From: an uncultured Candidatus Saccharibacteria bacterium
GTDB taxonomy: Bacteria; Patescibacteriota; Minisyncoccia; Phycocordibacterales; PALSA-1337
DNA: 47,589 bases
Reading direction: 5' to 3'
NCBI GenBank assembly: GCA_964587205.1
Contig: CAZPKQ010000001.1
Span: 1-47,589 of the forward strand
Part shown: positions 5,469 through 42,718 of the stretch, piece by piece
Position numbering within the stretch: position 1 is the stretch's first letter
How the letters are laid out: each line of letters opens with the position of its first letter
The notes under the pieces: generated by a model
What the model saw: the letters and a program-made list of their open reading frames with translations, nothing else
Database searches by the model: none
What the model was told of the DNA's origin: nothing
Translations under genes and position numbers: made by a program

Positions 5469-5597
5469 TCTATATCAAAACTTATCAAACCAGATAATTG
5501 AATCAATTTTATGCAAATTTTTTAAATATGTACAAAACATAACTTTTGTTGTAGTATGTGCAAGGAACAGCAGTTGACCGATTACCGAGGAGGTAGC

Positions 5598-5885
5598 GTG
5601 ACGCGAAAACTTGTTCAACATCTAACCGAAAATCACAAACACTGGAATGTCACAATTTCAGAAGACGGATTGATTTCTGTTGAGTGTAGTCAATGCAAGA
5701 TTACGCCCAATGCAATCAAAGAAGCAGTTCACGGCTTTATCAGTACATACGGCCTGAGTAGGTTGGAAGATGAGGATTGTCCGATCGCTGGAATCGTACT
5801 CACTTCAGAGGAATATCCACCCACGTTGCTGCAAGCAACAATGTACAATAGGGCATATGCAACCATCAGAGTTGCTGTGACCTGA
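5598..5885 (+). CDS. Hypothetical small protein, GC-shifted orphan
   Basis: GTG at 5598 is preceded by GAGGAGG (5587-5593). An in-frame ATG at 5556 is the alternative start. An intrinsic terminator follows immediately. No family recognised. Confidence 0.5.
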   Translation: MTRKLVQHLTENHKHWNVTISEDGLISVECSQCKITPNAIKEAVHGFISTYGLSRLEDEDCPIAGIVLTSEEYPPTLLQATMYNRAYATIRVAVT

Positions 5886-5890
5886 AACGC

Positions 5891-5923
5891 GCCGAACCGC
5901 ACAATGGTTCGGCATGTTTTTTT
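5891..5923 (+). terminator. Intrinsic terminator
   Basis: GCCGAACC (5891-5898) pairs with GGTTCGGC (5906-5913), followed by seven T (5917-5923). Confidence 0.8.
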
Positions 5924-6025
5924 ATTTTAATCAATATTTGATAGTTGTGATTTATATGCTAGACTGGGTTTTCAGAACGCAGCTCAAAACAAAATAGAAA
6001 CCAAGTGGAGAAATAGGAGATAAAT

Positions 6026-6349
6026 ATGCAAGAATTTGCAGCTTTTCTTCAGGAAATACTGAAAAAAATTGACAGCAGAGTCGAGGTGATGGACCAAGAT
6101 GATCACCACCTACTCATCGAGGTTTGGTCTTCTAAAGACTTATGCCTGCACGGTGGAGTATCCGAAAGGATTATAATTCCTTTCCTAACCCGATTCGCTC
6201 TGTTCACGACACGATGCGAACTCGAGGAAATACTAACAATAATTGTCACCAGTCTTTGTTCAGATCGTAGCTACCTAATCTCCACAAGACAAAGGAAGCG
6301 CAAAAAATCCTTTTGTCTGAGAATTTCAATAACCGCAGTCCAACCGTGA
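6026..6349 (+). CDS. Hypothetical small protein, orphan
   Basis: ATG at 6026 with AGGAG (6015-6019) 6 nt upstream. Followed by a terminator with the same stem sequence as the previous gene. No family recognised. Confidence 0.5.
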   Translation: MQEFAAFLQEILKKIDSRVEVMDQDDHHLLIEVWSSKDLCLHGGVSERIIIPFLTRFALFTTRCELEEILTIIVTSLCSDRSYLISTRQRKRKKSFCLRISITAVQP

Positions 6350-6378
6350 AGAATTCTGGGCGAAAACAGGCCAAACAC

Positions 6379-6408
6379 ATGCCGAACCAAGGTTCGGCAT
6401 TGTCTTTT
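6379..6408 (+). terminator. Intrinsic terminator, stem related to 5891-5913
   Basis: ATGCCGAACC / GGTTCGGCAT palindrome followed by TGTCTTTT. Confidence 0.7.
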
Positions 6409-6446
6409 CATTCAATTACATATGTGTCACATATGTCATGCATAAG

Positions 6447-7040
6447 TCACACATATGCAGATAAAATCTCAAAATCTTTTTTTAGATTTGGTAAATTGTG
6501 GGGATTATAAACTGCGACACAGGGATGATACAAAGCGACAATTTTGATTGGACCATAACTTGCCTTGGCCTCATAGGCTTTGCCATGAGCTTTGCCTATC
6601 GCTTCCAACTCTGTTTGCTTACCAAATTTATTCATAATATAAACCATAGCATAACGACCCAGTGTAACAATAATCTTTGGCTGGATTATCTCAATCTGCT
6701 CATCAAGAAATGGACCATAAACTCTTATCTCCTCGGTACTTGGATCACGATTTTCTGGCGGTCGATCTTTGACTATATTTGTAATATAAATAGATGAGCG
6801 TTCGAGTCCTACATGCTTCAACAATTCATCCAGCACTTTGCCCGCTGCCCCACAAAAAGGTCTGCCGGTCTTGGCTTCATTTCTTCCTGGCGCTTCACCG
6901 ATCATCACGATATCTGCATCATGACTTCCCTCGCCGATCACTGGGAAATAGGCATTACTTGTCCTGTATTCATAAAGCGGAGACTCCTTTAGATTCAAAA
7001 TTTTATCCCTTATAATTTTTAGTTTATCGGTCTTTGTCAT
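6447..7040 (-). CDS. udg: Uracil-DNA glycosylase, family 4
   Basis: 197 aa with GEAPGRNEAKTGRPFCGAAGKVLDELL, typical of family-4 UDG. Confidence 0.9.
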   Translation of the reverse strand: MTKTDKLKIIRDKILNLKESPLYEYRTSNAYFPVIGEGSHDADIVMIGEAPGRNEAKTGRPFCGAAGKVLDELLKHVGLERSSIYITNIVKDRPPENRDPSTEEIRVYGPFLDEQIEIIQPKIIVTLGRYAMVYIMNKFGKQTELEAIGKAHGKAYEAKASYGPIKIVALYHPCVAVYNPHNLPNLKKDFEILSAYV

Positions 7041-7046
7041 ATTGTA

Positions 7047-7892: not shown

Positions 7893-7897
7893 TCTAG

Positions 7898-9415: not shown

Positions 9416-9460
9416 ATTTGCATAGTACAACAAAAATCAAATAAGGTAAATATTGTTATT

Positions 9461-9586
9461 AAAGGTCTCAGCAAACATTGGGTATGAAGACCGCTTGCAG
9501 GAAATTCCTAGCAAGGAATTTCCGAAACAGAGCAAAACCTTGCAAGGTTTTGCGTGTCTTCAGACACAATGTTCGCTGAGACCTTT
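9461..9586. repeat. Nested palindromic element with a closing stem and two internal hairpins (three-way-junction-like)
   Basis: AAAGGTCTCAGCAAACATTG (9461-9480) pairs with CAATGTTCGCTGAGACCTTT (9567-9586), 19 of 20. Inner elements are GAAGAC/GTCTTC, GGAAATTCCT-AGC-AAGGAATTTCC and GCAAAACCTTGCAAGGTTTTGC. Confidence 0.85.
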
Positions 9587-9608
9587 TGTAAATGTGTTTA
9601 AATTTTTA

Positions 9609-12962: not shown

Positions 12963-13075
12963 GTTTTTATAATAGTATTAATGAATATGTTTTATCATTT
13001 TATCCAATTAAAGTCAACAAGCTTGCACAACTTGTAGATTTATGGTACAACGTAAATGGAAGGAACCTCAAGACC

Positions 13076-13585
13076 ATGAAAAAAGTGGAATGGGAAATCG
13101 GTTTTGTACTGCCGAAGCAAATCACCGGCACACCAATGTGGCTCGACACGAAACCGTTGCGGGACTTGGACATTTCGAGATCTGTCCGTCTGATCGGAAC
13201 TCCCGAAAAACAATCTGGAGAATTTCTGAACTGGGCAAAGGGGCAAGCAACGGATGGGACGATCTTCGCAGATATCAGGCACTTCCAGCGTCTTGCCGAG
13301 GTGCTCGAAGGCAAGTCTAGCCAGGTCGAAGGTCGATACACTCACTTCGTCTTGGCTGGAATTGTCTTCGATACCACGGAGCAGATTCGGGTCGTGGAAA
13401 AAGTGACCGTCGCTGGCAAAACGACAGATCAGCCGAAGATGATCGACGTCAACATGCGGTCTGTTCCCGTGATGAATCTTTTCGTGATCAATAACAAGCC
13501 GGTCTGGGGCGTTGCCCTTTATCCGGCAAATCAATACTACGGGCGACTTGGTGGTCATGACACCGCGCTCGTACTGATCGGATGA
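13076..13585 (+). CDS. Hypothetical protein, GC-rich orphan
   Basis: ATG at 13076 (MKKVEWEIGFVLPKQ...), 169 aa. Preceded by TTGCAC-N17-TACAAC and GGAAGG, followed by a hairpin terminator. Overlapping ORFs in other frames are likely GC artefacts. Confidence 0.55.
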   Translation: MKKVEWEIGFVLPKQITGTPMWLDTKPLRDLDISRSVRLIGTPEKQSGEFLNWAKGQATDGTIFADIRHFQRLAEVLEGKSSQVEGRYTHFVLAGIVFDTTEQIRVVEKVTVAGKTTDQPKMIDVNMRSVPVMNLFVINNKPVWGVALYPANQYYGRLGGHDTALVLIG

Positions 13586-13610
13586 AGTTTCCACACTTCG
13601 TCCATTTCAC

Positions 13611-13634
13611 AAGCGCCGACAACAATCGGCGCTT
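13611..13634 (+). terminator. Hairpin terminator between the convergent orphan gene and leuS
   Basis: AAGCGCCGA-CAACAA-TCGGCGCTT followed by GGTTTATTTAT. Confidence 0.65.
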
Positions 13635-13641
13635 GGTTTAT

Positions 13642-16641
13642 TTATGAAATAACAATATTGATCAATCTATTGGGTACAACGATAACTTTTGTAACCTTTT
13701 TGCCTTCCAACCACTTCTTGACAACCTCATTTTCCATAGCGATTTTTTCGATAATAGATTTGTCTGCATTTGAAGGTGCTTCGAAACTTCCTCTCAACTT
13801 ACCATTGATCTGAATTGTAATATTTACGATATCTTCTTGGACAAAATCTGGGTTATATTCTGGCCAAGGAGCGATATGAATTGACTTTTTATTTCCCAAA
13901 TTCATCCACAATTCTTCAGTAAAATGAGGGGCAAAAGGAGCCAAAAGTTTGATCAAATTAGAAAAATTTTGTTTATCGATAATTCCGATTTTTTCTACTT
14001 CATTTACTGTAATCATAAGGGTACTGATTGCTGTATTGAATCGTAGTGATTTGATATCATCAGTCACCTTCTTGATTGCTTTGTGAATGTATTTTGATAT
14101 TTCTTTTGTTTGATTTTGATCTAAGGTATTTGAAATTTTGTCATTCAATTTCCAGACTCTTTCTATGAATCTCCTTGTACCACTCAAGCCAGCAGTACTC
14201 CAAGCAATCTGTTGATCAAATGGACCCATAAACATTTCGTATAATCTCATCGAATCAGCACCATAGTTTTTGACTATATCATCAGGATTTACTACGTTGC
14301 CAAATCTCTTGGACATCTTCCTACCATCTTCACCCATAATAAGACCGACGTGCTGAAGTTTGATAAATGGTTCGGTCGTCGAAACTACTCCGATGTCATA
14401 CAAGAATTTGTGCCAGAAGCGGGCGTATATGAGATGGCGCGTTGCATGTTCTGCCCCACCAACATAGACATCGACTGGTGACCAATATTTTTCTTTTTTA
14501 TTATCAACCAATGCTTTGGAATTTTTTGGATCCATGTAGCGCAAATAGTACCAAGATGAACCTGCCCACTGTGGCATAGTATTTGTCTCTCTCTTGGCTT
14601 TGCCTTTGCAAACTGGACACTTAACATTGACCCATTTGTCTATCGAAGCAAGAGGCGACTCACCAGTACCAGTAGGTTCGTAAGATTTGACTCGAGGTAA
14701 TGTCACTGGCAAATCTTTGAAAGGTACGGGTACAATTCCGTTTGATTCTGGTCTTATCAATTTGCAATTTTCGCAATGAATAATTGGCATTGGCTCGCCC
14801 CAATATCGTTGACGCGAAAATACCCAATCACGAAGTTTGTATTTTGTAACCCACTTGCCACCAACAAAATCTGTAATTTCTTTTTTTATTTCTTCAGAAT
14901 TTTTGCCGTTGAATTGACCTGAATCCATAACAATACCATAACCGGTATATGCTATATCACCATTTAATCTCTGACGCCAATAAGGCATCTCCGAATGCGT
15001 CATAAAATCATCTGTAAGTGTTGAGAAAGATTCCCAAAATATTTCATGTTGGGCATTTTCTTCATCACTAACATTATCTTTTTCTTCATTTTCCAAATCA
15101 AAGGTAACCAACGATGTTAAAGCCAATCTATTTTGATCTTTATGAGCTGCAAAATATTCTGCTCTGACTATACCGCCCAAAACTTTGCCATTTGAAAGAT
15201 TTTTGTAGCCAGTCTCCTCTTGTACTTCTCTTTTGGCTGCTGTTATCAGATCTTCACCTTGTTCGACTCCTCCCATTGGGAAAGTTGTCCAAGGATGCTT
15301 TTTCCATTTCAAACAAAGAATCTTTCCATCTTTTGGATTTCTTACAATGACATGAACATTTCTTCTTTCTACTTTTTGCTTACCAGCCACTGGAGGATTT
15401 CTTTTATCGACGATGTGTGGAGCGATGACTTGCTTTATTGAAAGATTGTATTTTGTTGCAAACTCCCAATCTCTATCATCATGAGCGGGTACGGCCATGA
15501 CTGCGCCTGTGCCATAATCTGGCAAGACATAATCAGCAATCCAAAGTGGCACAGCTTCATTGTTTGCTGGATTAATAACCTTGATACCTTTCAATTCAAC
15601 ACCCGTCTTTTCTTTTTTTACATCTGTCCTTTCAATTTCGCTAATATTTTTTACTTTCTTTATATATTCTTCAACTTCGTTTCTATTTTCTACAATACTC
15701 AAAAATTCAGAGACTAGTTTGTGCTCTGGAGCAAGCACAACATATGTAACCCCAAACAATGTATCGGGCCTTGTCGTAAACACCTCAATTTCTTCCTTAA
15801 CTTTGGACTTTGCACTTTGCACTTTAAACTTTATCAACGCACCTTCGCTCTTCCCAATCCAATTTTTCTGCAAAATCTTTATCGATTCTGGCCAATCAAG
15901 CAAATTACCGCCCTTTTCATTTTTCAAATCAAGATCAGATAAAAGTCTCTCGGCATAGTCAGTAATTTTCAAAACCCATTGACGCATAGGTTTCTTTTCG
16001 ACAACAGTACCACAACGCTCACAACGACCATCCTCAACATCTTCATTTGCCAAACCAGTCTTGCATGAAGGACACCAATTTATCGGCTCATATGATTCAT
16101 AAGCCAAACCTTTTTCTAATAATTTCAAAAAGATCCACTGTGTCCATTTGTAATATTTTGGATCGGTGGTGTTGACCTCGCGCGACCAATCATAATCGAA
16201 GCCAAGTATTTCCAATTGCTTCTTGTATCTTGCAACATTCTTCTTGACCGAATCGGCCGGATTGGTCTTGGTCTTTAGCGCATAATTTTCTGCTGGTAGA
16301 CCGAAAGCGTCAAAGCCCATAGGATGTAGAACCGAGTGACCATTCATGCGCTTGAAACGAGAAATGACATCGGTGGCAATATAGCCTTTTGGATGACCAA
16401 CATGCAAACCTTCACCGGATGGATATGGGAACATATCGAGAACATAAAATTTCTCTCTTTTACCAACTTCTTTTGATTGGTACAATTTGGTCTTTTGCCA
16501 TTTCTTCTGCCATTTGGATTCGATGGGGGCGGGGTTATAGGTTTTGAGCGTTATCTTTTTTGTACTTACTGATGCGCTTTTTCTTGGCTTTTGCCCTTTG
16601 CCTTTTACCTTTTTTAATGCCTTAGATTTTACTTTTTTCAT
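13642..16641 (-). CDS. leuS: Leucine--tRNA ligase with an inserted Nudix-box domain and Lys-rich insertions
   Basis: Carries HVGH, CP1 motifs TTRPDTLFG and GTGAVMAVPAHDDRD, RDWVFSRQRYWGEP, and KMSKR. I prefer the ATG at 16641 (MKKVKSKALKK...), with TATGAT 6 nt upstream. Confidence 0.95.
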   Translation of the reverse strand: MKKVKSKALKKVKGKGQKPRKSASVSTKKITLKTYNPAPIESKWQKKWQKTKLYQSKEVGKREKFYVLDMFPYPSGEGLHVGHPKGYIATDVISRFKRMNGHSVLHPMGFDAFGLPAENYALKTKTNPADSVKKNVARYKKQLEILGFDYDWSREVNTTDPKYYKWTQWIFLKLLEKGLAYESYEPINWCPSCKTGLANEDVEDGRCERCGTVVEKKPMRQWVLKITDYAERLLSDLDLKNEKGGNLLDWPESIKILQKNWIGKSEGALIKFKVQSAKSKVKEEIEVFTTRPDTLFGVTYVVLAPEHKLVSEFLSIVENRNEVEEYIKKVKNISEIERTDVKKEKTGVELKGIKVINPANNEAVPLWIADYVLPDYGTGAVMAVPAHDDRDWEFATKYNLSIKQVIAPHIVDKRNPPVAGKQKVERRNVHVIVRNPKDGKILCLKWKKHPWTTFPMGGVEQGEDLITAAKREVQEETGYKNLSNGKVLGGIVRAEYFAAHKDQNRLALTSLVTFDLENEEKDNVSDEENAQHEIFWESFSTLTDDFMTHSEMPYWRQRLNGDIAYTGYGIVMDSGQFNGKNSEEIKKEITDFVGGKWVTKYKLRDWVFSRQRYWGEPMPIIHCENCKLIRPESNGIVPVPFKDLPVTLPRVKSYEPTGTGESPLASIDKWVNVKCPVCKGKAKRETNTMPQWAGSSWYYLRYMDPKNSKALVDNKKEKYWSPVDVYVGGAEHATRHLIYARFWHKFLYDIGVVSTTEPFIKLQHVGLIMGEDGRKMSKRFGNVVNPDDIVKNYGADSMRLYEMFMGPFDQQIAWSTAGLSGTRRFIERVWKLNDKISNTLDQNQTKEISKYIHKAIKKVTDDIKSLRFNTAISTLMITVNEVEKIGIIDKQNFSNLIKLLAPFAPHFTEELWMNLGNKKSIHIAPWPEYNPDFVQEDIVNITIQINGKLRGSFEAPSNADKSIIEKIAMENEVVKKWLEGKKVTKVIVVPNRLINIVIS

Positions 16642-16699: not shown

Positions 16700-16728
16700 T
16701 TGACAATCATTATGTGGTATGCTATAAT
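16700..16728 (+). promoter_or_regulatory. Consensus sigma-70-type promoter TTGACA-N17-TATAAT
   Basis: TTGACA at 16700-16705, a 17-nt spacer, and TATAAT at 16723-16728. The ATG follows 8 nt downstream at 16737. Confidence 0.75.
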
Positions 16729-16736
16729 TGAAGTAG

Positions 16737-16916
16737 ATGAATACCACCCAAATAACGACGTTCACGGGAACGCCCGAAGTCGCGGCCAGGAAGGCCGAGG
16801 AGTTGTTTGATGTCCAGAAGCTGGACATCAAACAGACTCTAGTCAATACGTCCACTACGTTGGTGGACGGGAAACTCATTCTGACCATCGTTGTAATCTG
16901 GACCCGTCCGGTCTAG
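16737..16916 (+). CDS. Hypothetical 59-aa protein, GC-rich and probably leaderless
   Basis: MNTTQITTFTGTPEVAARKAEELFDVQKLDIKQTLVNTSTTLVDGKLILTIVVIWTRPV. One residue below the track cut-off. Framed by the consensus promoter and a strong terminator. Confidence 0.5.
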   Translation: MNTTQITTFTGTPEVAARKAEELFDVQKLDIKQTLVNTSTTLVDGKLILTIVVIWTRPV

Positions 16917-16927
16917 TAACAACGAAC

Positions 16928-16964
16928 GCATCGCGTTCCCTCCGGGGGGCGCGATGATTTTTTT
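16928..16964 (+). terminator. Intrinsic terminator
   Basis: CATCGCG (16929-16935) pairs with CGCGATG (16950-16956) around a GC-rich loop, followed by seven T (16958-16964). Confidence 0.8.
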
Positions 16965-16981: not shown

Positions 16982-17566
16982 TCAGACAAACCACTTTTTC
17001 CTATGCTTATCTAAATAGGTCATAATATCTTCGAGAAAATATTGAGCAAAACTATTGTATTTGCTTGTCTTACTTCTTTTTCGATTATTAAAATCTTCAA
17101 AACTAACTTTTCTCTTGAGCCAATGATCATCTTCAGATAGTAGTACAGTAAGAATAGGCTCAATTTTTTCTATTATATATACAAATATAGCCTCTTCATC
17201 TTGCCTCTTTTCGTAAATATCAATTTCTTTCCAAATATTAATTAAATCTGGATATCTACTTTTTAACTTTGCCAGAGATTTCAATTCTCTTTTATGTTTA
17301 TCAATCTTCTTATTTGAATATATGGAAACATCACCAGCATAAACTTCTACAAAGTCATGGATGAGTGAATACTTTATAACTTTATTTAAATCAAGTTTTA
17401 AATTATATTTTTCAATAATCATCCAACAAAGCATAGCAACCCTATATGAATGTTCTGCATCATTGTCTCTAATCATAGAACTATGGATCGAATCGAGGTC
17501 TCTATATGTAGAATTAAAGCGCTTCAATAATTTCTGATAGGCGATAATATTTTTGAAATATTCCAT
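16982..17566 (-). CDS. HD-domain phosphohydrolase (YfbR-like 5'-nucleotidase type)
   Basis: 194 aa with AEHSYRVAMLCW ... LIHDFVEVYAGDV. Confidence 0.8.
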   Translation of the reverse strand: MEYFKNIIAYQKLLKRFNSTYRDLDSIHSSMIRDNDAEHSYRVAMLCWMIIEKYNLKLDLNKVIKYSLIHDFVEVYAGDVSIYSNKKIDKHKRELKSLAKLKSRYPDLINIWKEIDIYEKRQDEEAIFVYIIEKIEPILTVLLSEDDHWLKRKVSFEDFNNRKRSKTSKYNSFAQYFLEDIMTYLDKHRKKWFV

Positions 17567-17988: not shown

Positions 17989-19185
17989 CTAAACCTTAAA
18001 CTCAATAACATCACCATCTTTGACGACATACTCCTTACCTTCAATGCGAAGTAGACCTTTTTCGCGAGCAGAGGCATACGATCCTGAAGCGAGCAATTTG
18101 TCCCATTCAATAACTTCTGCACGAATAAATTTGTCTTTGAAATCTGTGTGAATAGCTGTACCCGCAAGAGGTGCTGTCCAACCTCGCTTGATGGTCCAGG
18201 CTCTAGTCTCATCTTCCCCAGTAGTAAAATAGACAATTAGATTCAACAAATCATAGCCAGTTCGAATAAGATTATTTATACCATCCCCCTTCGCCAAGGC
18301 TTCGGGGGACAGGTCCTCCTTCGCCAAGGCTTCGGGGGACAGGTCCTCTTTCGCTGAAACGAGTTCAGACGAGGCTGGAGAGATCGTTTCTCCAACCAAG
18401 GCTTTTCTCATTTCTTCTTTTTCCTCATGATCGAAATCTTTCAATTCATTTTCGATACCAGCATCAACGACTACCCATTTGGAATTATTATTTTGAAAAA
18501 AACTAATCAAAGCCTTATAGCGCTCATCATTCAATTCATCCAAATTTTTGCCACCACTTTTTTTATTCAAAACATAAAGAATTGGCTTTGATGTTATCAA
18601 ACATAATTGTTTCAAATATGGTTCTTCAAATTCATCTACTTTGACCGTAGAAGCCAGTTTACCAGATTCGAGTATAGGAATAATTTTGTCCAATAGACCC
18701 ATTTCCAAAATCGCTTCCTTTCTACCTGATTTGAAGTCTTTTGAAAGATTACTCTTTCTCTTTGTCACGGTAGCGAGGTCTGCCATTATCAATTCAAGAT
18801 TGATAACTTCTATATCCTTGAGTGGATTGATCTTGCCGTCGACATGGATGATATTGTCATCCTCGAAAATCCTTACTACTTCTGCAATAGCATCGGTCTC
18901 TCTAATGTTTGATAAAAATTGATTGCCCAGACCCTCTCCTTCTGATGCGCCTTTGACCAAGCCAGCAATATCGACAAATTCGATAGCGGCAGGAATTGTC
19001 TTTGCAGATTTTGAAAAATGAGATAATTTCCAAAGTCGCTCATCAGGAACAGCAACAACTCCGACAGATGGATCGATAGTAGCAAATGGATAATTTGCAA
19101 TAAGAACGCTCTTTTTTGTAAGCGCGCTAAAAAGGGTTGATTTTCCCACATTTGGCAGACCGACTATTCCGATTGATAGAGACAT
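17989..19185 (-). CDS. ychF: Ribosome-binding ATPase YchF with a repeat-derived in-frame insertion
   Basis: GIVGLPNVGKSTLFSALT P-loop and a TGS-like C-terminus ...KDGDVIEFKV. I prefer the ATG at 19185. Confidence 0.95.
   Translation of the reverse strand: MSLSIGIVGLPNVGKSTLFSALTKKSVLIANYPFATIDPSVGVVAVPDERLWKLSHFSKSAKTIPAAIEFVDIAGLVKGASEGEGLGNQFLSNIRETDAIAEVVRIFEDDNIIHVDGKINPLKDIEVINLELIMADLATVTKRKSNLSKDFKSGRKEAILEMGLLDKIIPILESGKLASTVKVDEFEEPYLKQLCLITSKPILYVLNKKSGGKNLDELNDERYKALISFFQNNNSKWVVVDAGIENELKDFDHEEKEEMRKALVGETISPASSELVSAKEDLSPEALAKEDLSPEALAKGDGINNLIRTGYDLLNLIVYFTTGEDETRAWTIKRGWTAPLAGTAIHTDFKDKFIRAEVIEWDKLLASGSYASAREKGLLRIEGKEYVVKDGDVIEFKV
18288..18347. repeat. Perfect 30-bp in-frame tandem duplication inside ychF
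   Basis: CCTTCGCCAAGGCTTCGGGGGACAGGTCCT occurs at 18288-18317 and again at 18318-18347, encoding (EDLSPEALAK) twice. Its core is the reverse complement of 38374-38396. Confidence 0.9.
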
Positions 19186-19244: not shown

Positions 19245-19823
19245 CTACGAGGAAGACCCTGATGCAGTTCCGTCTGCATTGGGGGCTTTTTCTTTTACAT
19301 TCCTCTCATGTAACTCAAGGTTTGATTTTTGATCATCCAGATATGCAATCGGAGCACCAGTTCTTTTTAATAATATTGAGCATCTCTTTGGATTACTTGG
19401 AGACAAAATTGCCTTCAGCTTCCCACCGGCTAATAATACCTTTATCAGTGGTGCATAATCTCCATCACTTGCGACTATAACGGCTTTTTCTAAGAAACCT
19501 AAATAAAAATCGCTACTGGCTTTCATTAGTAAATCTGAATCACAATTACCCTTTGGTTTACCATCTGCGTAAACAACATCCTTAAAGATCAACTCAAAAC
19601 CACATTCTTGTATATAAGAATATAAATCCTTGTACTTTGGGATCAGGCCAATAAAAATATAAGCTATTTTTACATCATATTTCTCAGATAACCAGATCCT
19701 GAACTTCCGATAATCTAAACGCCAATTTAAATGATTTCTGAGAGCTTTATCAAGATTTGTAGCATCAATATAAGCAATATTGACCGGATGCTCTTTTTGC
19801 AACTTATTTTGAAACAAAGACAT
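19245..19823 (-). CDS. NYN/LabA-like (PIN-like) domain protein
   Basis: ...NIAYIDATNLDKAL...VIVASDGDYAPLIKVL... I prefer the ATG at 19823 (MSLFQNKL...); the track start at 19871 is TTG. Confidence 0.75.
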   Translation of the reverse strand: MSLFQNKLQKEHPVNIAYIDATNLDKALRNHLNWRLDYRKFRIWLSEKYDVKIAYIFIGLIPKYKDLYSYIQECGFELIFKDVVYADGKPKGNCDSDLLMKASSDFYLGFLEKAVIVASDGDYAPLIKVLLAGGKLKAILSPSNPKRCSILLKRTGAPIAYLDDQKSNLELHERNVKEKAPNADGTASGSSS

Positions 19824-20295
19824 GAAATGAGCATAACACAAAGCGGTGCTACTTGTCATAGCACCGCTCAATCCTCACCAAATCCACCCTACCGTCGAAC
19901 GGATCCAGAACGATGAAGAGAACGAGGATCAAAGAGAAATACCTGACCCGGACCGAGACCGGTAGGCACCGTCCTCAAGTTGGGAAGTTCCTCAGGAGTC
20001 ACCGTAGGCACAGGTTGTTGACGGCCTTTTTTGTGGTCGTCAGCTGCCCCGTGTGTTTTCAGCATGACCCAATTGGGAATACTTCCATTATTGTTCTTGT
20101 AACGAGAGCGAAATCGCTAATGAGACACGCTCGGAATTTGCTTAAAGCCCTTTGCCATAATAGCTCCGTTGTTGAGGTTGAAGCAAACTAAGTTATCGAA
20201 CCAAGCCAATCAATCCGTACAAAATATTGCCACAAATAGACATTTTGTACAAATATTTTAATAATATTGATAATCGAGTACCAAACTATAGAAAT

Positions 20296-22082: not shown

Positions 22083-23087
22083 TCATTTATCTTCTCTATG
22101 TCTTTTCTCAACCTGCTTTTGAATATCAACGATTGATTTCAAATATGCTTCTTCTACTGGTGAAAGTGTTTTAGCTTGATATTTCTTATATTCATTCTCT
22201 GCTTTTTGAATTGCCTGTTCATGGCTAATACTACCCGCATTTTCTAATACTCCTTTTCCGTAGTTGAAAGCAAACTTGTCTAGTTCTGTAACCCAATCTA
22301 TCATACGCATTTTATTATGCTCTTGTGCTTTTATTTCAGCAAGATCAAAAAAGGCTGAAACTATACGATTAAGCCGAAAAAGCTCATCTTCCGCTAGATA
22401 ATTCTTTGCAATACTTATATCAGAACGGACAGGATGCGCACCAGCAAAAGTTGTTAGCCCCATAAAGTCTTTTTCAGCATCAGCTCTAGAATGAATTGTT
22501 TCTGCGGCGGTTTTTTGGTTAGTTGCATAATGCAATTTATTCTGCACTGTTTTAAAAAATTTGACTGATTCTTCACTTTGTGGATCATAATCAATACTAG
22601 TTGAATATAGATCCAGTACTTGACGATACAATGCTTTTTCACTACTGCGAATATCGCGAATGCGCTCCAATAGTTCTTTCCAATAATTTCCTCCTCCGGT
22701 ACCTTTGAGCCGTTCATCGTCCATAGCAAAACCTTTGACAATATATTCACGCAGTCGTGCTGTAGCCCATTGTCTAAATCGAGTACCCTGAACAGAACTT
22801 ACACGATATCCGACCGATATAATTACATCAAGGTTATAATAATTTGTGGGCTTTGTAGAAAAATCGGTATTTCCGATTTTTCTCATAGTATCTTGCTCTA
22901 TAAGCTCATTTTCTGCATATATATTTAAAATATGTTCATTTATCGTAGAACGACTTTTATCAAACAATTCTGCCATCTGATCAATAGTCAGCCAAACCGT
23001 TTCATTTTCTACATGCACTTCAATTTTAGGTTGGCCATTATCACCTCCATATATTAGTACTAAATTGTTTGATTCTTCTTTTTTCAT
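22083..23087 (-). CDS. rhuM: RhuM-family protein
   Basis: 334 aa with ...VWLTIDQMAELFDKSRSTINEHI...YNLDVIISVGYRVSSVQGTRFRQWATARLREYIVKGF..., the typical RhuM family pattern. Confidence 0.8.
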   Translation of the reverse strand: MKKEESNNLVLIYGGDNGQPKIEVHVENETVWLTIDQMAELFDKSRSTINEHILNIYAENELIEQDTMRKIGNTDFSTKPTNYYNLDVIISVGYRVSSVQGTRFRQWATARLREYIVKGFAMDDERLKGTGGGNYWKELLERIRDIRSSEKALYRQVLDLYSTSIDYDPQSEESVKFFKTVQNKLHYATNQKTAAETIHSRADAEKDFMGLTTFAGAHPVRSDISIAKNYLAEDELFRLNRIVSAFFDLAEIKAQEHNKMRMIDWVTELDKFAFNYGKGVLENAGSISHEQAIQKAENEYKKYQAKTLSPVEEAYLKSIVDIQKQVEKRHREDK

Positions 23088-23119
23088 TATGCTATTTTAA
23101 TTTACGGATTTATTATAAA

Positions 23120-30832: not shown

Positions 30833-30885
30833 CCCGAAGCTTCACCTCAGGGTATTTATAAGTTTGTGAGGTTTAACCTCACAAA
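30833..30885 (-). promoter_or_regulatory. Upstream module of uvrA: 23-bp palindrome P1 plus a conserved hairpin
   Basis: P1 is TTTGTGAGGTTTAACCTCACAAA (30863-30885), with 11-bp arms around one central nt. The hairpin is CCCGAAGCTTCACCTCAGGG (30833-30852). The same pair lies upstream of clpB. Confidence 0.7.
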
Positions 30886-30926
30886 AAATAAATAAAAGAA
30901 AACCCCCCAAGCTTTCGCAAGAGGGG
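30886..30926 (-). terminator. Intrinsic terminator ending the GC-rich unit
   Basis: Minus strand reads CCCCTCTTGC-GAAA-GCTTGGGGGG (GNRA loop) followed by TTTTCTTTTATTTATTTTTT. Confidence 0.8.
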
Positions 30927-31470
30927 TAAAGGGAGGAGCCGAGGGACAGAGTCCGTAGCCGTCCTACCCTTTCGGTGCCAGTTCGCGTTGCCGTTAGGCC
31001 GATTGCGAATGTGGTACGTTGCCACCCCAATACTGTACTGTTCGAAGTAAGGGGTGGCAGGTGGCTGGAGTGACAAGCGATGGTAAACGAGGGCGGGCAG
31101 CCCTAGCTCATTTACCAAGTTGTGCGTGTCACTCCCGCCGAGCCGGGCTGGTCAGCCGCTCGCCGGGGTCGTCGAGGCGAGGGTGCCGCCGGAGGTCGGG
31201 GTCGTCGTCGAGAATTTCGCTTTACCAGTGATGATCATCTGGCGATTCATCGGCGGTCCATTCATGTTGGCTCCTTGGGGGTCCTTAAACCCCCTTTGTA
31301 TGAGACGACCCCATTCGGGTGTCGTCTCGGTGTTGTTTGGCCCCACCGTCGTGGCGGGACCGGGTTCGTTGCACATTGGCCACGAGTTATCGCTTTTCCT
31401 TGCCCACTGGGCAGGTCGGCATTCCTCATCGGTCAACGTGTCTGGTAGTACTAGACACCTTTCATATTTT
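30927..31470 (-). other. GC-rich, helix-dense transcription unit of unknown nature (structured RNA and/or micro-protein gene)
   Basis: TTGACA lies upstream at 31472-31477 on the minus strand, and a terminator closes the unit at 30886-30926. Clear helices are listed in the findings. All six frames are open because of GC. Confidence 0.4.
31152..31265 (-). CDS. Possible 37-aa Thr/Ser/Pro/Gly-rich peptide
   Basis: ATG at 31265 with AAGGAG (31271-31276) 5 nt upstream. Peptide is MNGPPMNRQMIITGKAKFSTTTPTSGGTLASTTPASG. The frame is also open upstream, so the length is uncertain. Confidence 0.35.
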   Translation of the reverse strand: MNGPPMNRQMIITGKAKFSTTTPTSGGTLASTTPASG

Positions 31471-31598
31471 TTGTCAAGTGTTTGAATAGACCCAATGTAA
31501 TTGATCAAACTTAATAGAAAATACAAAATGATTATTAAGATAAATTACCTATATTTATAGCCATAAAATAAGTTGGGTATCATAAATCCGCACCTAAC

Positions 31599-31621
31599 TT
31601 TGCGAGGTTAAACCTCGCAAA
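31599..31621. promoter_or_regulatory. Palindrome P2
   Basis: TTTGCGAGGTTAAACCTCGCAAA, perfect 11+1+11. Lies between the clpB stop and the GC-rich unit. Confidence 0.7.
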
Positions 31622-31641
31622 AAATATATAAAATAAAACCC

Positions 31642-34363: not shown

Positions 34364-34411
34364 CCCCGAGGTTTCACCTCAGGTGTTCTATTGCGAGGTT
34401 AAACCTCGCAA
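34364..34411 (-). promoter_or_regulatory. Upstream module of clpB: palindrome P3 plus a conserved hairpin
   Basis: P3 is TTGCGAGGTTAAACCTCGCAA (34391-34411). The hairpin is CCCCGAGGTTTCACCTCAGG (34364-34383). The hairpin ends 4 nt before TTGACT (34354-34359). Confidence 0.7.
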
Positions 34412-37303: not shown

Positions 37304-37407
37304 ATATTTTATTTAATGATAATGTAACTATAGTATATCACAAGAATGAATTATCAAGTTTTTATTTGAAACTAAGATAAATAGGTTATTTTACTGTACC
37401 AAACATG

Positions 37408-37570
37408 GACCCGAGAGGAGGTGTGTTTTTTATTTTTTTGTGACAACGAGTTATGCGATTGGTGCGTCAGTCTACTAAACATTCAGGCAGAAGATTGCTA
37501 GCATACCAACAACTCGGATGAGTAATACGCAGTTGCACAAAAAAATAAAAAACACACCTCCTCTTGGGTC
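37408..37570. repeat. MITE-like or long-hairpin element with ~35-bp terminal inverted repeats
   Basis: GACCCGAGAGGAGGTGTGTTTTTTATTTTTTTGTG (37408-37442) pairs with CACAAAAAAATAAAAAACACACCTCCTCTTGGGTC (37536-37570). One mismatch. The centre is ~93 nt. Confidence 0.8.
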
Positions 37571-37595
37571 AATCAATAGTATTGCAAAATGTAAG

Positions 37596-38315: not shown

Positions 38316-38457
38316 CCCTACTACGCTCGCTAGTCGCGAGCTTCGTAGGGCAGGCCCTTTGCCCTTCCTGCCCTCCGTAGCCTTGGCGAAGGAGGGTTAC
38401 CTTTTACCTTTTACCTCTTACCTAAACCTTTACCCTTTAACTTTTGCCTTTTACCTT
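38316..38457. repeat. Second copy of the GC-rich composite repeat
   Basis: CTACGCTCGCTAGTCGCGAGCTTCGTAGGGCAGG ... CCGTAGCCTTGGCGAAGGAGGG ... then a run of TTACCTTTTACC-type units. Related to 3357-3526 and to the ychF insert. Confidence 0.8.
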
Positions 38458-39479: not shown

Positions 39480-39580
39480 AGGGTGATGTTATCATACATT
39501 TACCTTGGTGCAATATGGACAGGTCCGAGCAATATTAAAAATTGACCAAATTAAAATTTAGGAGTATTTTTGATACAGAT

Positions 39581-39832
39581 ATGAATATTCACTTCGACCC
39601 AGCACTTATCATCTGTGCTTTGATCCTGATCTTGACGGCATTGTACCTCGGAATGAAAATCGTCAGCACAAAGCCATCGAAAGATGACTTCGGTTTGGAA
39701 TTCGAGAAAGCGGTCATGAGTGCGCTTCTCGGAGCGACGTTCTTACTTCTCATTGCCACCATCGTGGCTATGTTCATCAACCAAGACCCCGCCACCCGGC
39801 GGTGGTTTTTTATTAAAATCTTTTTCTCGTGA
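39581..39832 (+). CDS. Possible small two-TM membrane protein, moderately GC-shifted
   Basis: MNIHFDPALIICALILILTALYLGMKIV...LLGATFLLLIATIVAMFI... A terminator-like hairpin lies inside its last 13 codons, so the 3' end is uncertain. Confidence 0.4.
   Translation: MNIHFDPALIICALILILTALYLGMKIVSTKPSKDDFGLEFEKAVMSALLGATFLLLIATIVAMFINQDPATRRWFFIKIFFS
39792..39811 (+). terminator. Intrinsic terminator-like hairpin
   Basis: CCACC-CGGC-GGTGG followed by six T. Confidence 0.6.
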
Positions 39833-39856
39833 ATAGTATCAACAAAAGTCATTTCA

Positions 39857-39920
39857 CACACCCATTCTTCGAGGCCGCAAAAACTCTGCAGAGTTTTTGC
39901 GGCCTCGAGGAATAGGTGTG
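39857..39920. repeat. 64-nt near-perfect palindrome (about a 32-bp stem)
   Basis: Symmetric about 39888/39889. CACACCCATTCTTCGAGGCCGCAAAAACTCTG / CAGAGTTTTTGCGGCCTCGAGGAATAGGTGTG, with one mismatch and one T:G. Shares its core with 5345-5468. Confidence 0.9.
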
Positions 39921-39960
39921 CGGAGAGATTTTTGTCTAAAAAATAACTATTCAGAAGGTT

Positions 39961-41286
39961 CTACGACACCCTTACGACATTAGCCCCAATCGCTCTCAAC
40001 CTAGTCTCTAAACTTTCGTATCCACGATCGATAAGATGGATATTTGAAATTGTAAATTTACCTTTTGCAACAAGACAAGCAAGGACGATAGCAAAACCCG
40101 CGCGAATATCATGAGCAGTTAGCTCCACATGTTCAAAATGAGAAAGTGGTGTAGGTCCATTGATCAAGGCCTTATTGCCATCGATAATATTTATACGCGC
40201 ACCCATTTGCACTAGATCATGAGCGTATTTGAAGCGACCTTCGAATATAGTCTCGACTACCGTACTTTCACCTTCACATTGAGTAAGATAGGTCACAAGC
40301 GGTGACTGAAGGTCTGTTGCAAAACCAGGATATTCTTTTGTGACTACATTGAATGGTCGAAAAGCATTGTTATTTTTATTTGAAATTTTGATCGAACCCT
40401 CCTCACCATCTTTACCGATAATCTCAATATCCACACCTGACTTTTTCAACAAATCAATCACTAGATCTAGATGATCGGGGCGACAATCGTCTATATAAAG
40501 TTCTTCGGCCAGCAACGCTCCCAGAAACAAAAAACTACCCGCCTCAATCCTATCTGGTATTGCACGATAAGCAACGCTTGTATTCAATAACTTTCCACCA
40601 TTGCCATTTATGATGATGGTATCCGTACCCAAGCCTTGAATATCGGCCCCATTTTGATTTAACCAATGACCAACATTCTCTATCTCAGGTTCTTTGGCAC
40701 AATTTTTCAATATCGTCTTACCACTTCCCAAGACCGATGCCATCATAAGAGTCTCGGTACCGCCGACCGTTATCTTGGCAAAAGTTATCTCAGTCCCTGT
40801 TAGTCTATCTGCTTCTATATAATATATTTCATTTTCCAATCGAACTTTTGCCCCCATTTTCTTGTAACCATCGATAAAGAGATCGATCGGTCTTGCACCT
40901 ATCACACAACCACCTGGTGCTGGGAATGAGACTTTGCCAAATCTCGCCAACATCGGGCCAGTCAGTACCACCGACGCTCTCATCGATCTTGCTTTGTCTG
41001 GATTGATATCGGTTTTGCCTATCGTACTTGTATCTATATATAGAGTCTTAGTCAATGGATTATTATCCTTCCATTCAATCTTTGCTCCCAAATCCTGCAA
41101 AATTTCATTTAGTGTATGTACATCTTCGGTATTGGGTATGTTATTTAGCTCGACTTTGCCCTGAAATAAAACCGCACCCGCCATTGCTTTCAAAGCAGCG
41201 TTTTTTGCGCCATTTATAGATACTCTACCCTTCAATGTCCTTTGACCTGCCAAGCCGTTAATTAAAAACTTTTCTTTTTTATTCAT
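39961..41286 (-). CDS. murA: UDP-N-acetylglucosamine 1-carboxyvinyltransferase
   Basis: 441 aa with ...RVSINGAKNAALKAMAGAVL... and ...PGGCVIGARPIDLFIDG... Confidence 0.96.
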   Translation of the reverse strand: MNKKEKFLINGLAGQRTLKGRVSINGAKNAALKAMAGAVLFQGKVELNNIPNTEDVHTLNEILQDLGAKIEWKDNNPLTKTLYIDTSTIGKTDINPDKARSMRASVVLTGPMLARFGKVSFPAPGGCVIGARPIDLFIDGYKKMGAKVRLENEIYYIEADRLTGTEITFAKITVGGTETLMMASVLGSGKTILKNCAKEPEIENVGHWLNQNGADIQGLGTDTIIINGNGGKLLNTSVAYRAIPDRIEAGSFLFLGALLAEELYIDDCRPDHLDLVIDLLKKSGVDIEIIGKDGEEGSIKISNKNNNAFRPFNVVTKEYPGFATDLQSPLVTYLTQCEGESTVVETIFEGRFKYAHDLVQMGARINIIDGNKALINGPTPLSHFEHVELTAHDIRAGFAIVLACLVAKGKFTISNIHLIDRGYESLETRLRAIGANVVRVS

Positions 41287-41831
41287 ATATTGAAATTAGT
41301 TATTTCACCTTTCGATAGCAAATAATTTAATTCGTTTGACAAACAAATTTCATCTGCTATACTATAATTACAAACATTGACTTCGAAATCCGAAGTCCCC
41401 GAGATTACCCCGAAAGGGGTTTTCGTTTTATTTATCATGGCATTCACTTGTTTTTTTAATTCCATAAAATCATAATGATCTATGGTGCAAATATTTCTTA
41501 TTAATCTCCTTCTATCAAAAACTCTCAATTGCATCAATAAAACATCATTTTCTTGACCATTAATCAGCATTCTATGTCTAAATTTTTCTGATTTAATTTT
41601 TGTTGTAAGTGGTACCCCGAGAAATATGTCATTAGTAAGCTTCCTTAGAACAATCACTGGTCGACTAAAATCTTTTGATATTGAATGTTGTTCAGACCCT
41701 ATATTCAAACCAATTGAACACCACCACAATTCTCTTTCAGCAAAATTAGCAAGATCGATACGACTATCTAAATCCTTTTTATGAATATTCCATTGATCAA
41801 AATCCTTTTTCATAAATATTAGTTCCTGCAT
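41283..41831 (-). CDS. PemK/MazF-family toxin-like protein with N- and C-terminal extensions
   Basis: ELWWCSIGLNIGSEQ...RPVIVLRKL...LGVPLTTK...VLLMQLRVFDRRRL matches the MazF/PemK core pattern. Start at ATG 41831 or 41813. Its stop TGA overlaps the murA ATG (ATGA). Confidence 0.72.
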   Translation of the reverse strand: MQELIFMKKDFDQWNIHKKDLDSRIDLANFAERELWWCSIGLNIGSEQHSISKDFSRPVIVLRKLTNDIFLGVPLTTKIKSEKFRHRMLINGQENDVLLMQLRVFDRRRLIRNICTIDHYDFMELKKQVNAMINKTKTPFGVISGTSDFEVNVCNYSIADEICLSNELNYLLSKGEITNFNI

Positions 41832-41855
41832 TCTATCTATTTTCCACCTTTTTAA

Positions 41856-41884
41856 CAATACAAAAGGCCCGCGCAGGCGGGCCC
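41856..41884 (-). terminator. Intrinsic terminator after the GC-rich orphan gene
   Basis: The minus strand forms a 7-bp GC stem, GGCCCGC pairing with GCGGGCC, around the loop CTGC, followed by TTTTGTATT. Confidence 0.8.
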
Positions 41885-41904
41885 GTGAGAGGTGGAAAAC
41901 CAAG

Positions 41905-42597
41905 TTAACTGAGTGCCTCAAAGATCTGATTGGGAGTGGGGCGCAGGAACTTGTGAAAAATCTGCACGTTCATCGCTCCACCAATGCCAGAATTCAAGCA
42001 TTGCTTTTGAGCTTGATTCATCTTCATTCGTTCCTCCACCATACCACCGTGGAAGGATTCGAAAAATTGACGCCTAAGCAACCTCTTCGCCTCAGCAATT
42101 GATTGGCCGACGGCATTATCCTCGTCATGTTTCAGATCCGGATTGACTCGACAAGAACAAGCTTTGGCAAAGATAGCGCCAAGATTTCTGGCCACCAAAA
42201 TTGAATCGTTCGGGCACATAAATTTGCCATACCCGTCACACATACCGACGGCAAGACCCTTAAGGAACTCTCCCTGATCGAGAATACATTCATCAGTCGT
42301 CGAGTCAAAGAGTTCACAAAGGAGTCTAGGAATGGCAACAAACGCAAAGCCAAGACGAAATCCAATCTGGTATTGACAATCTCGACCCTCAATAGCACGA
42401 AGTCTTCCAATCTCCGTAAACATCAGCCCAAGATCGATCTCCGGATCAATCAAGAAATCCTGAACCGAGGCCATTAAGGTCTCGAAAGCTAAACCATGAT
42501 TAGGGTTGGAAGAATGATCGGCCAAACATCCCTGAAAGACCTGACTGATCCAACCAAGGCATAGCGCTTCGTGGCTGTTCAAATGACGTCTTTCCAT
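41905..42597 (-). CDS. Hypothetical 230-aa protein, GC-rich orphan
   Basis: ATG at 42597 preceded by AAAGGTGG. It has its own promoter, a structured leader and a terminator. No family recognised. Confidence 0.6.
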   Translation of the reverse strand: MERRHLNSHEALCLGWISQVFQGCLADHSSNPNHGLAFETLMASVQDFLIDPEIDLGLMFTEIGRLRAIEGRDCQYQIGFRLGFAFVAIPRLLCELFDSTTDECILDQGEFLKGLAVGMCDGYGKFMCPNDSILVARNLGAIFAKACSCRVNPDLKHDEDNAVGQSIAEAKRLLRRQFFESFHGGMVEERMKMNQAQKQCLNSGIGGAMNVQIFHKFLRPTPNQIFEALS

Positions 42598-42608
42598 ACC
42601 ACCTTTCT

Positions 42609-42647
42609 GTCCTCTCGGACAACCCTCTCGGGCATGACCTCTCGGTC
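42609..42647 (-). promoter_or_regulatory. Three tandem mini-hairpins with an identical CC-GAGA-GG core in the orphan gene leader
   Basis: In mRNA sense: GACC-GAGA-GGTC (42647-42636), CCC-GAGA-GGG (42632-42623) and GTCC-GAGA-GGAC (42620-42609). The period is 13-14 nt. The last hairpin ends 11 nt before the ATG. Confidence 0.7.
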
Positions 42648-42689
42648 AAGGTTTTTGGGGCAGTCAATGTGACTGTTTGTCCAAAAACG

Positions 42690-42718
42690 ATAATATAGCC
42701 AAATTGACAGCTAGTCAA
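42690..42718 (-). promoter_or_regulatory. Putative promoter of the orphan gene, back-to-back with a putative priA promoter
   Basis: Minus strand has TTGACT (42718-42713), N17, TATTAT (42695-42690). Plus strand has TTGACA at 42704-42709, N17, ATAAAT. Confidence 0.55.

Follow-up and report, generated by a model that had tools for sequence, protein, structure and literature searches.

Eight short patches, designated islands A to H, lie between conserved housekeeping genes in a 47,589-nt stretch of DNA from an uncultured bacterium (the whole of contig CAZPKQ010000001.1 of assembly GCA_964587205.1; hereafter the window, meaning this whole stretch, with a GC content of 38.4%), and these GC-rich patches are probably lineage-specific, self-expressed add-ons, comparable to the morons of phages, in the spacers of a conserved chromosome of the Candidate Phyla Radiation (CPR). 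CPR bacteria have tiny, highly syntenic genomes, and the way in which they gain new functions is little understood. The plus strand carries A (5556..5921), B (5938..6408), C (13019..13641), D (16700..16964) and G (39542..39832), the minus strand E (19841..20250), F (30859..31641) and H (41865..42718). The island set is heterogeneous; it comprises six small, fast-evolving orphan protein genes, one gene broken by an in-frame stop, and one or two structured RNAs. A single undescribed class of accessory cassettes, as put forward in the original prediction from the letters of the window, does not describe such a mixture of protein genes, a broken gene and RNAs. The islands are confined to a species-level clade; the corresponding slots of family-level relatives lack them.

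The evidence for insertion comes from relatives that have kept the gene order of the window. A metagenome scan with the divergent holB retrieved syntenic contigs (L090 to L092; clpB 84-87% identical) that retain the order fmt-def-priA / murA-mreB-holB-frr-rseP-proS-clpB-uvrA and lack F, G and H. In L090, both H and the neighboring mazF are absent and the priA-murA gap measures 242 nt; the murA-mreB gap without G is 83 nt in L090 and 39 nt in L093, a locus in which mazF is present without H. Between clpB and uvrA, the relatives from the holB scan have 504-1,485 nt of DNA that shows no relationship to F. Four further loci (L104, L105, L106 and L109) were reached through homologs (87-94% identical) of the sigma-like protein encoded next to C; all of them keep the order zwf-ychF-leuS-sigma-DUF8128-mltG-mnmA-ATPcone-udg-pepF-alaS and lack A to E; the empty spacers measure 56-159 nt between leuS and the sigma-like gene and, in L105, 12 nt between udg and pepF and 36 nt between zwf and ychF. 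A sister genome was reached through the only other cluster of protein C (76% identity; 1.84 billion representatives), on a 569-kb contig, and its other half through a member of the 90% cluster of clpB; in the sister loci (L110 and L112), A, B, C, E, F, G and H occupy positions identical to those in the window, and the slot of D holds an unrelated membrane ORF (open reading frame) of 61 amino acids (aa) on the other strand. In a third close lineage, H is present (L108) and F is absent (L113). A scan of GTDB genomes with clpB was swamped by universal ClpB motifs and yielded only relatives at 59-76% identity, without synteny. The description of the islands as individually inserted units is borne out, since the same slots are short, empty or otherwise filled in relatives with conserved gene order; aligned across the family, the islands are missing from these slots, and only F is cleanly presence/absence-polymorphic among the close lineages. 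The opposite pattern, conservation of the islands in all relatives under purifying selection of the core type, was not found.

The surrounding backbone consists of housekeeping genes, almost all in minus orientation: on the minus strand alaS, pepF, udg, mnmA, mltG, leuS, ychF, zwf, ddl and uvrC as well as uvrA, clpB, proS, rseP, frr, holB, mreB and murA, and on the plus strand priA, def and fmt. Close homologs are labeled Paceibacterota, Parcubacteria or Taylorbacteria, which identifies the window as a chromosome segment of a Paceibacterota bacterium, in the Parcubacteria group of the CPR. The sole RNA gene in the window found by ARAGORN and Rfam is a tRNA-Ala, and Rfam searches of the whole window at the gathering score and at lax E-values found only this tRNA. 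No Shine-Dalgarno (SD) sites were found upstream of the core genes; instead, 15 of the 31 core genes have a TAnnnT hexamer whose first base lies 12 or 11 nt upstream of the ATG (for example upstream of 3263, 5294, 12962, 16641, 34323 and 39479), where about 3% would be expected per position, and the proposed leaderless, SD-free character of the housekeeping genes is thereby strongly confirmed. No integrase or transposase was present among the window ORFs scanned, as had been stated. Nucleotide divergence of the backbone between window and sister is mosaic, with 85-86% identity in leuS, uvrA and udg and 95-98% in zwf, clpB, mreB, frr and murA; this mosaic suggests frequent homologous recombination among co-occurring lineages.

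Base composition sets most islands apart from this backbone, to different degrees. Core genes have a mean GC content of 0.385 (standard deviation 0.035, range 0.30-0.46); the clear outliers are C (0.52, z 3.8), D (0.52, z 4.0), E (0.49, z 3.0) and the most GC-rich island, F (0.59, z 5.9; 0.63 within 30901-31200), and the deviation is moderate in G (0.46, z 2.3) and H (0.47, z 2.4). A (0.44, z 1.6) and B (0.42, z 1.1) lie inside the core range; compare mreB at 0.46 and frr at 0.44. Of the 19 GC peaks seen at a scale of 150 nt, about half belong to core genes, among them udg, ychF, uvrA, frr, mreB, murA and def. Of the eight visibly GC-rich segments originally perceived, C to F are clear and G and H moderate cases, but A and B are marginal and many peaks of the same kind belong to core genes. 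The GC excess of C, D and G resides mainly in third codon positions (GC3 of 0.60-0.72 versus approximately 0.34 in the core). High GC3 has stayed the same in both lineages despite substantial divergence. The tetranucleotide distance of the pooled islands to the core exceeds that of all 300 random core sets (z = 10.9); together with the z values of 2.3-5.9 for C to H, this distance upholds a compositional deviation.

The variable slots contain AT-rich accessory genes as well (16982-17566, 19245-19871, 22083-23590, 41283-41921); these encode an HD/YfbR-like nucleotidase, an NYN nuclease, a RhuM protein matching PADLOC PDC-S05, its 156-aa partner h156, and a MazF/PemK toxin. The sister lacks NYN, rhuM, h156 and mazF, and mazF is truncated or internally deleted in two lineages. 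A high GC content is therefore not what defines the accessory set, since the AT-rich HD, NYN, rhuM, h156 and mazF genes belong to it too. In the slots of relatives, unrelated small ORFs are often 0.08 to 0.17 GC-richer than their own genome, which hints at a lineage-wide tendency.

Translation signals likewise distinguish most islands from the leaderless core. The predicted canonical SD sites are all present: GAGGAGG at 5587 (A), AGGAG at 6015 (B), the minus-strand site at 31271-31276 (in F), and the site before 42597 (H); A, B, E, H and the small ORF in F are SD-led. C is preceded merely by a weak AGGAA, and D and G are nearly leaderless, like the backbone; the contention that composition and expression signals both set the islands apart is valid, for composition and translation signals, in most of them. 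Terminator-like hairpins accompany all eight islands, including those at 5891-5913 (A), 6379-6400 (B), 13610-13635 (C), 16929-16956 (D), 39789-39806 (G) and, on the minus strand, 41884-41865 (H). Promoter-like hexamers were matched at the pattern level for B, D, G, H and F. Such matches number 60 in one half of the window (60.3 expected from shuffles) and 67 in the other (49.9 expected); as they are overall no commoner than in shuffled sequence, most promoter calls are valid at the pattern level only. Of the promoters and GC-rich terminators suggested for the islands, the terminator-like hairpins lie exactly at the predicted ends; hairpins and promoter hexamers alike are pattern matches, the latter at chance frequency overall. 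Intergenic regions, promoters, untranslated regions (UTRs) and terminators flanking the islands are 85-97% identical to those of the sister, compared to 63-82% for the island ORFs.

Weak purifying selection keeps the frames of A, B, C, H and probably G open, and their proteins change several times faster than those of the core. Between window and sister, core genes are 85-98% identical at the nucleotide level, with nonsynonymous divergence (dN) of 0.005-0.076 and a ratio of nonsynonymous to synonymous divergence (dN/dS, Nei-Gojobori method) of 0.01-0.10; in the comparison made for H, priA, murA and fmt have dN/dS of 0.06-0.16. The dN of A, B, C and H amounts to 0.16-0.37, and island dN is 2-75 times the core values. 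The ORFs of A, B, C and H are full length in two or three lineages, with whole-codon indels; intact frames together with dN/dS of 0.13-0.49 mark them as real, weakly constrained, fast-changing protein genes. Profile searches of the island ORFs against Pfam, NCBIfam, PHROGs and PADLOC produced no match, in agreement with the initial impression that no island protein could be assigned to a family.

The individual protein islands follow this pattern with variations. A begins at GTG 5598, behind the GGAGG of its SD site (5587-5593), and not at ATG 5556 as originally read; the equivalent of this ATG is lost in the sister, and the GTG-start ORF (95 aa, to 5885) is intact. The A ORF is 63-67% identical to the sister at the nucleotide level (dN 0.37, dN/dS 0.28), against 95% for the upstream intergenic region. 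B combines a promoter-like element (5938-5965) with an orphan ORF of 107 aa (6026-6349), intact in the sister (L110 993-1316; 65% nucleotide identity, dN 0.29, dN/dS 0.13); its terminator, 91% conserved, has the stem GCCGAACC...GGTTCGGCAT, the same as the terminator stem of A. A and B were considered as paralogs, and no homology between them was found. C, with an orphan ORF of 169 aa (13076-13585), is an insertion of about 630 nt between the promoter of the sigma-like gene and the leuS stop; at the empty sites (L109, L105, L104 and L106) this promoter, which is conserved, directly adjoins the leuS stop. The C ORF is 82% identical to its sister counterpart at the nucleotide level and 76% at the protein level (dN 0.16, dN/dS 0.39, GC3 0.60). 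G consists of a promoter-like TTGACC-17-TATTTT (39542-39570) and an 83-aa, two-helix membrane ORF (39581-39832), with the terminator hairpin inside the ORF end; it is 89% identical to the sister, with flanks at 97-98%, and its frame and two hydrophobic helices are kept around a variable protein center.

Island H comprises a promoter-like element (42718-42690), the SD site AAAGGTGG, and an all-helical orphan ORF of 230 aa (41905-42597). Only four homologs were found among 5.8 billion proteins, all of them between priA and murA; protein identity is 66-68%, versus 95-99% for the flanking proteins (dN about 0.2, dN/dS 0.34-0.49), and nucleotide identity to the sister is 78%, versus about 95% for the flanks. 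H was examined as a potential antitoxin of MazF and rejected in this role, as an intact H persists in L107, L108 and L112, where mazF is truncated or deleted, and mazF occurs without H in L093; H also has its own predicted terminator upstream of mazF. Hypermutation as a source of H divergence was rejected as well, since the synonymous divergence (dS) of H, 0.44-0.61, falls within the backbone range of 0.08-1.3; the neighbors are unusually similar instead, and mosaic recombination fits this observation.

E represents a decaying, nonsense-interrupted gene. It is a minus-strand gene, a correction to the original prediction, for a small basic protein (frame 19889-20158, 89 codons, SD-led, with a terminator at 19869-19841) that is interrupted by an in-frame TAG after codon 13 in the window; the sister retains an intact ORF of 86 aa in this position and also conserves the promoter and 5' UTR (near 20215-20250). 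Nucleotide identity of E to the sister is 76%, compared to 95% for the adjacent zwf, and its fold z values are merely -1.2 and -1.6.

Only F, and possibly B, is bounded by direct repeats. A unique insertion of 689 nt (30906-31594) lies between 47-bp direct repeats (30859-30905 and 31595-31641), each containing the palindrome TTG(C/T)GAGGTTWAACCTC(G/A)CAA. In the third close lineage (L113) the clpB-uvrA spacer is only 116 nt long, with a single copy of the 47-mer and no F, and two long blocks flanking the site are 92.7% and 95.5% identical to the window; the 47-mer, doubled around F and single at the empty site, identifies F as a block that was either inserted with the repeats or deleted through them. 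The predicted transcript would run on the minus strand from about 31447 to about 30895, the strand that is likely favored by a TTGACA promoter element at 31477-31472 (with a better -10 in the sister) and a terminator at 30924-30903 followed by a T-run. Folding is stronger than in shuffled sequences on both strands (z of -4.5 on plus and -6.1 on minus). Between window and sister, the 5' and 3' parts of F are highly conserved and many indels are not multiples of three; the central segment is replaced in the sister by another sequence, which nevertheless builds a long hairpin upon an outer stem with compensated pairs. A 37-aa ORF (31152-31265, behind the SD site AAGGAG) becomes 43 aa in the sister through an in-frame indel; an ORF of this size is not unlikely to arise by chance in GC-rich sequence. 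Searches of F against Rfam, of plasmids and phages by blastn, and of IMG/VR with patterns of conserved F and the palindrome yielded nothing beyond chance; the longest ORF matched only itself among 5.8 billion proteins, and an nhmmer profile of F found nothing in all other fetched loci.

The palindrome of the F repeats occurs more widely. As a perfect 21-bp palindrome, TTGCGAGGTTWAACCTCGCAA, it is found at 30864-30884, 31600-31620, 34391-34411 and 45908-45928, with a degenerate copy at 34368-34380; these sites are upstream of uvrA, F and clpB, and also between a divergent kinase-like gene and def. At two or fewer mismatches its core has six matches versus 0.9 expected, and exact copies are limited to the closest lineages. 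The palindrome is not followed by a T-run and is therefore no terminator; it resembles either a recombination site or the operator of a regulon for stress or repair. A second motif, CCTGAGGTGAAnCYTCGGG, is common to the upstream regions of uvrA and clpB. More distant relatives have GC-rich spacer elements near holB (L099 9056-9615, L100 7115-7674, L090 7262-8032, L091 9481-10000, L093 8999-10000) of 300-1,000 nt without convincing ORFs or Rfam match, of which the L099/L100 pair is 77% identical over 560 nt; they are candidates for lineage-specific RNAs. These elements are unrelated to F, and so are the GC-rich intergenic elements of relatives between mreB and holB or between holB and frr.

The structure of F also bears on the possibility, raised in the original prediction, that small mobile elements of an autonomous or parasitic kind make up the islands. 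Such elements would move on their own or in trans, and their end repeats would be the sites of recombination. The 47-bp repeats with their 21-bp palindrome, the single repeat copy in a close lineage without F, and the recurrence of the palindrome in three other spacers are consistent with such elements, as are the position of B between two copies of a similar terminator hairpin, the 27-30-nt direct repeats on either side of both a 387-nt window-specific insert and a SET gene, and AT-rich long-hairpin elements that are clearly mobile between lineages. Yet no island has a second copy in the window or in any of the fetched loci; terminal inverted repeats are absent, and neither a transposase nor an integrase nor a reverse transcriptase is present in the window. 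In the sister, at a dS of about 0.4-1.3, the positions of A, B, C, E, G and H are unchanged; no repeat flanks C, and the polymorphism of F is equally explained by deletion between direct repeats. Mobile elements of this kind are therefore an unlikely explanation for the set, with F as a possible exception.

Island D raises a different question, that of coding versus non-coding function. A perfect sigma-70-type promoter, TTGACA-17-TATAAT with TG (16700-16728), precedes a predicted GC-rich transcript of about 225 nt that includes a 59-aa ORF (16737-16916); this ORF contains a perfect 19-bp stem, and the fold z against shuffles is -7.97. The 90% protein cluster of D has a single member, and D is known from this species only; Rfam comparisons at the gathering score and at lax E-values gave chance-level matches. 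D is probably a structured small RNA, judging from promoter and fold, with a peptide-coding gene as a possible alternative. Extended to the whole set, this reading would make the islands GC-rich merely as structured non-coding RNAs in an AT-rich genome, with accidental ORFs. Such an interpretation agrees with the fold of D (z near -8.0), with the fold z of F and its indels that are not multiples of three, with sense strands of A, B and C that are more structured (z of -3.7 to -4.8) than core mRNA segments (-0.16 ± 1.18), and with the general scarcity of stop codons in GC-rich sequence. It is at odds with the ORFs of A, B, C and H, kept full length at 63-82% nucleotide identity with dN/dS of 0.13-0.49, with the open frame of E in the sister and the conserved frame and two hydrophobic helices of G, and with the absence of any Rfam match for any island. 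An RNA-only reading therefore fits just D and most of F, and for the islands as a whole it is improbable. Ordinary vertical genes with expression-driven GC-rich codons, or artefacts of assembly or binning, are a very remote prospect: mreB (0.46) and frr (0.44) do reach island-like GC and D has a consensus promoter, but the islands are missing from the syntenic slots of family-level relatives, their dN is 2-75 times core values, they are orphans among 1.8-5.8 billion proteins, and C and F recur at 99.7-100% identity in independent assemblies from several other samples, which rules out an assembly artefact for these two.

The moron-like reading entails a sequence of events that can be outlined as follows. 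The islands would be separate, recently acquired accessory units, most of them complete monocistronic cassettes with a promoter, usually a 5' UTR with an SD site, a small ORF, and a GC-rich hairpin terminator. The leaderless core genes appear to carry their promoters within about 40 nt of the ATG, so that the spacers farther upstream could accept insertions without breaking expression; most islands are oriented against the backbone, and their terminators consequently face the 3' end of the neighboring core gene. The units may have been transferred horizontally from sources that are richer in GC and use SD sites, of which the mobilome of the lineage itself is the most plausible; a foreign origin is suggested by composition, SD use, and absence in relatives. 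Insertion might proceed by recombination at short hairpin-containing sequences and not by an element-encoded integrase. D and F would act mainly as structured RNAs, F perhaps also encoding a peptide of 37-43 aa, and the protein cassettes may serve fast-changing roles in conflict or interaction, such as phage defence, counter-defence or host contact, and not in housekeeping; this role is a guess from fast evolution and from the defence-like neighbors MazF, RhuM/PDC-S05, NYN and HD nucleotidase. A bolder variant holds that F, and perhaps D, is an undescribed GC-rich structured-RNA module that inserts beside TTGCGAGGTTWAACCTCGCAA with a duplication of about 47 bp, and that the lineage captures promoter-gene-terminator cassettes at hairpins without an element-encoded recombinase, which would amount to a moron-like system of chromosomal cassettes linked to the leaderless organization of the genome; this variant is speculative and doubtful.

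Several observations weigh against the moron-like reading. No donor was found in phage, plasmid and IMG/VR collections, and viral scans with C and with an H alignment were empty; the AlphaFold2 (AF2) models of H and C are unusable (predicted confidence, pLDDT, of 41 and 39). The GC-richness of A and B is only marginal, and the persistently high GC3 is as compatible with selection (on RNA structure, for instance) as with a foreign origin. The promoters were called by consensus, and such matches are overall at chance frequency. D is limited to one species, so that its RNA reading is no more than probable; the structural covariation of F, drawn from two sequences, is weak and leaves its strand undecided. 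The boundaries of C show no target-site duplication or recombination scar, and, C being scar-free, the insertion mechanism remains a proposal. Finally, the tetranucleotides of the islands are no closer to the integrated mobile element of the sister (r = 0.43) than to the core (r = 0.48); derivation of the islands from this element is thus unsupported by tetranucleotide correlation.

This integrated element of the sister (L112 17000-22682) adjoins uvrA and a 124-aa membrane gene and takes the place of the SET-uvrC-ddl segment of the window; it encodes a Phage_rep_O-like protein, a DNA methylase and a TrmB-like regulator, and its genes mostly have 45-53% GC compared to about 39% in the backbone, an indication that GC-richer mobile DNA circulates in the lineage. 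Other repeats are numerous in the spacers. AT-rich long-hairpin elements (5345-5468, 9440-9607, 37388-37590, 39842-39935) fold at z = -9 to -15, with arms 31-55 nt long; the pepF/A spacer with one of them is 95% identical to the sister, above the coding DNA, and the hairpin types at 5365-5448 and 9488-9559 are copied at a new place in the sister (L112 3423-3644). From these patterns they appear to behave like miniature inverted-repeat transposable elements (MITEs) or mobile structured elements. The 3' end of ychF has a look-alike in a direct repeat of 27-30 nt, ACCTTAAACTCTATGACACTACCGYCTTCA, which occurs in pairs (17606-17635/17993-18022 and 27200-27229/27657-27686), one around the 387-nt insert that is absent in the sister and another around the SET-domain gene, with a further copy in the sister's integrated element (L112 19234-19269); the pairs suggest a gain of repeat-bounded segments, as for F. 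Downstream of alaS, a GC-rich patch (1213-1447; GC 0.49, fold z -8.5 on the plus strand) contains a perfect 25-nt inverted repeat (1242-1266/1293-1317) and a tandem array (1288-1425) with a 21-nt period and a unit of about GGAATGACCACAAGGAACGAA. Short GC-rich repeats are common to spacers and coding DNA (18284-18343, 38367-38395, 3412-3453, 38333-38366, 16593-16613): a 30-nt unit is doubled in frame in ychF (LSPEALAKED twice), with an inverted copy in the holB/mreB spacer, and 72 of 1,198 ychF positions are opposite gaps in the sister alignment; a unit of 34-42 nt recurs in the alaS/pepF and holB/mreB spacers and partly in the 5' end of leuS. These sequences are reminiscent of small repeats that insert in frame into genes.

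The closest comparison is with the morons of phages, which are transcribed independently and are inserted between conserved genes of the phage (PMC3594210). Like morons, the islands were added between genes that are adjacent in relatives (the slots in L090-L093, L104-L106, L109 and L113), and they have predicted promoters and terminators of their own, a deviating GC content, and a single small gene of accessory type. In contrast to morons, they reside in a chromosome among aminoacyl-tRNA synthetase genes, uvrABC, murA, ddl and clpB, with no phage genes nearby and no matches in PHROGs, INPHARED or IMG/VR; two units are probably RNAs, and several run against the surrounding transcription. By this analogy the islands would share three of four moron features (insertion, GC and, as predicted from sequence patterns, own signals), with residence in a phage or prophage as the one that fails. 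Bacterial ORFans, a kind of taxonomically restricted gene, are reportedly short, fast-evolving and A+T-rich (Daubin and Ochman 2004); the islands resemble them in being short, restricted to a species-level clade, free of homologs elsewhere, fast-evolving yet under some purifying selection, and located at variable spots of a syntenic backbone, but differ in being GC-richer than the genome, SD-led in a leaderless genome, and flanked by non-coding ends that are better conserved than the ORFs.

Systems with dedicated recombination offer partial parallels. Integron cassettes are also single-gene modules bounded by recurring hairpins (compare the A and B terminators and the F palindrome), whereas the window has no integrase, no attI or attC and no array, and the islands are scattered and have promoter-like signals. 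F resembles cis-mobilizable or miniature integrative elements in being short, recombinase-free and placed between long direct repeats, with a single copy at the empty site; it differs from MITEs and insertion sequences (IS) as a single-copy unit with direct, not inverted, repeats and without any integrase found. A repeat scan for IS and MITE features detected each island only once and without terminal inverted repeats, and recurrence of the F repeat upstream of uvrA and clpB implies that it may be regulatory rather than an attachment (att) site. A target of a diversity-generating retroelement was considered and rejected, as no reverse transcriptase domain was found in the ORFs scanned and no internal repeat of any island sequence, and divergence extends over whole ORFs with backbone-like dS. 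The locus is best regarded as a well-documented case of moron-like orphan islets and not as a new system; a new class of element is not established.

For the biology of the CPR, the locus indicates that an accessory genome can grow by single-gene or single-RNA cassettes placed in the spacers of a leaderless backbone, here seen at base-pair resolution, and that such cassettes can bring a different mode of translation initiation and a different codon composition and evolve several times faster than the core. D and F may be new structured RNAs; F, bounded by repeats and the most unusual piece of the set, would provide a handle on the mechanism of insertion. If the pattern is general, composition combined with SD sites would become a cheap finder of young, conflict-related genes in uncultivated episymbionts.

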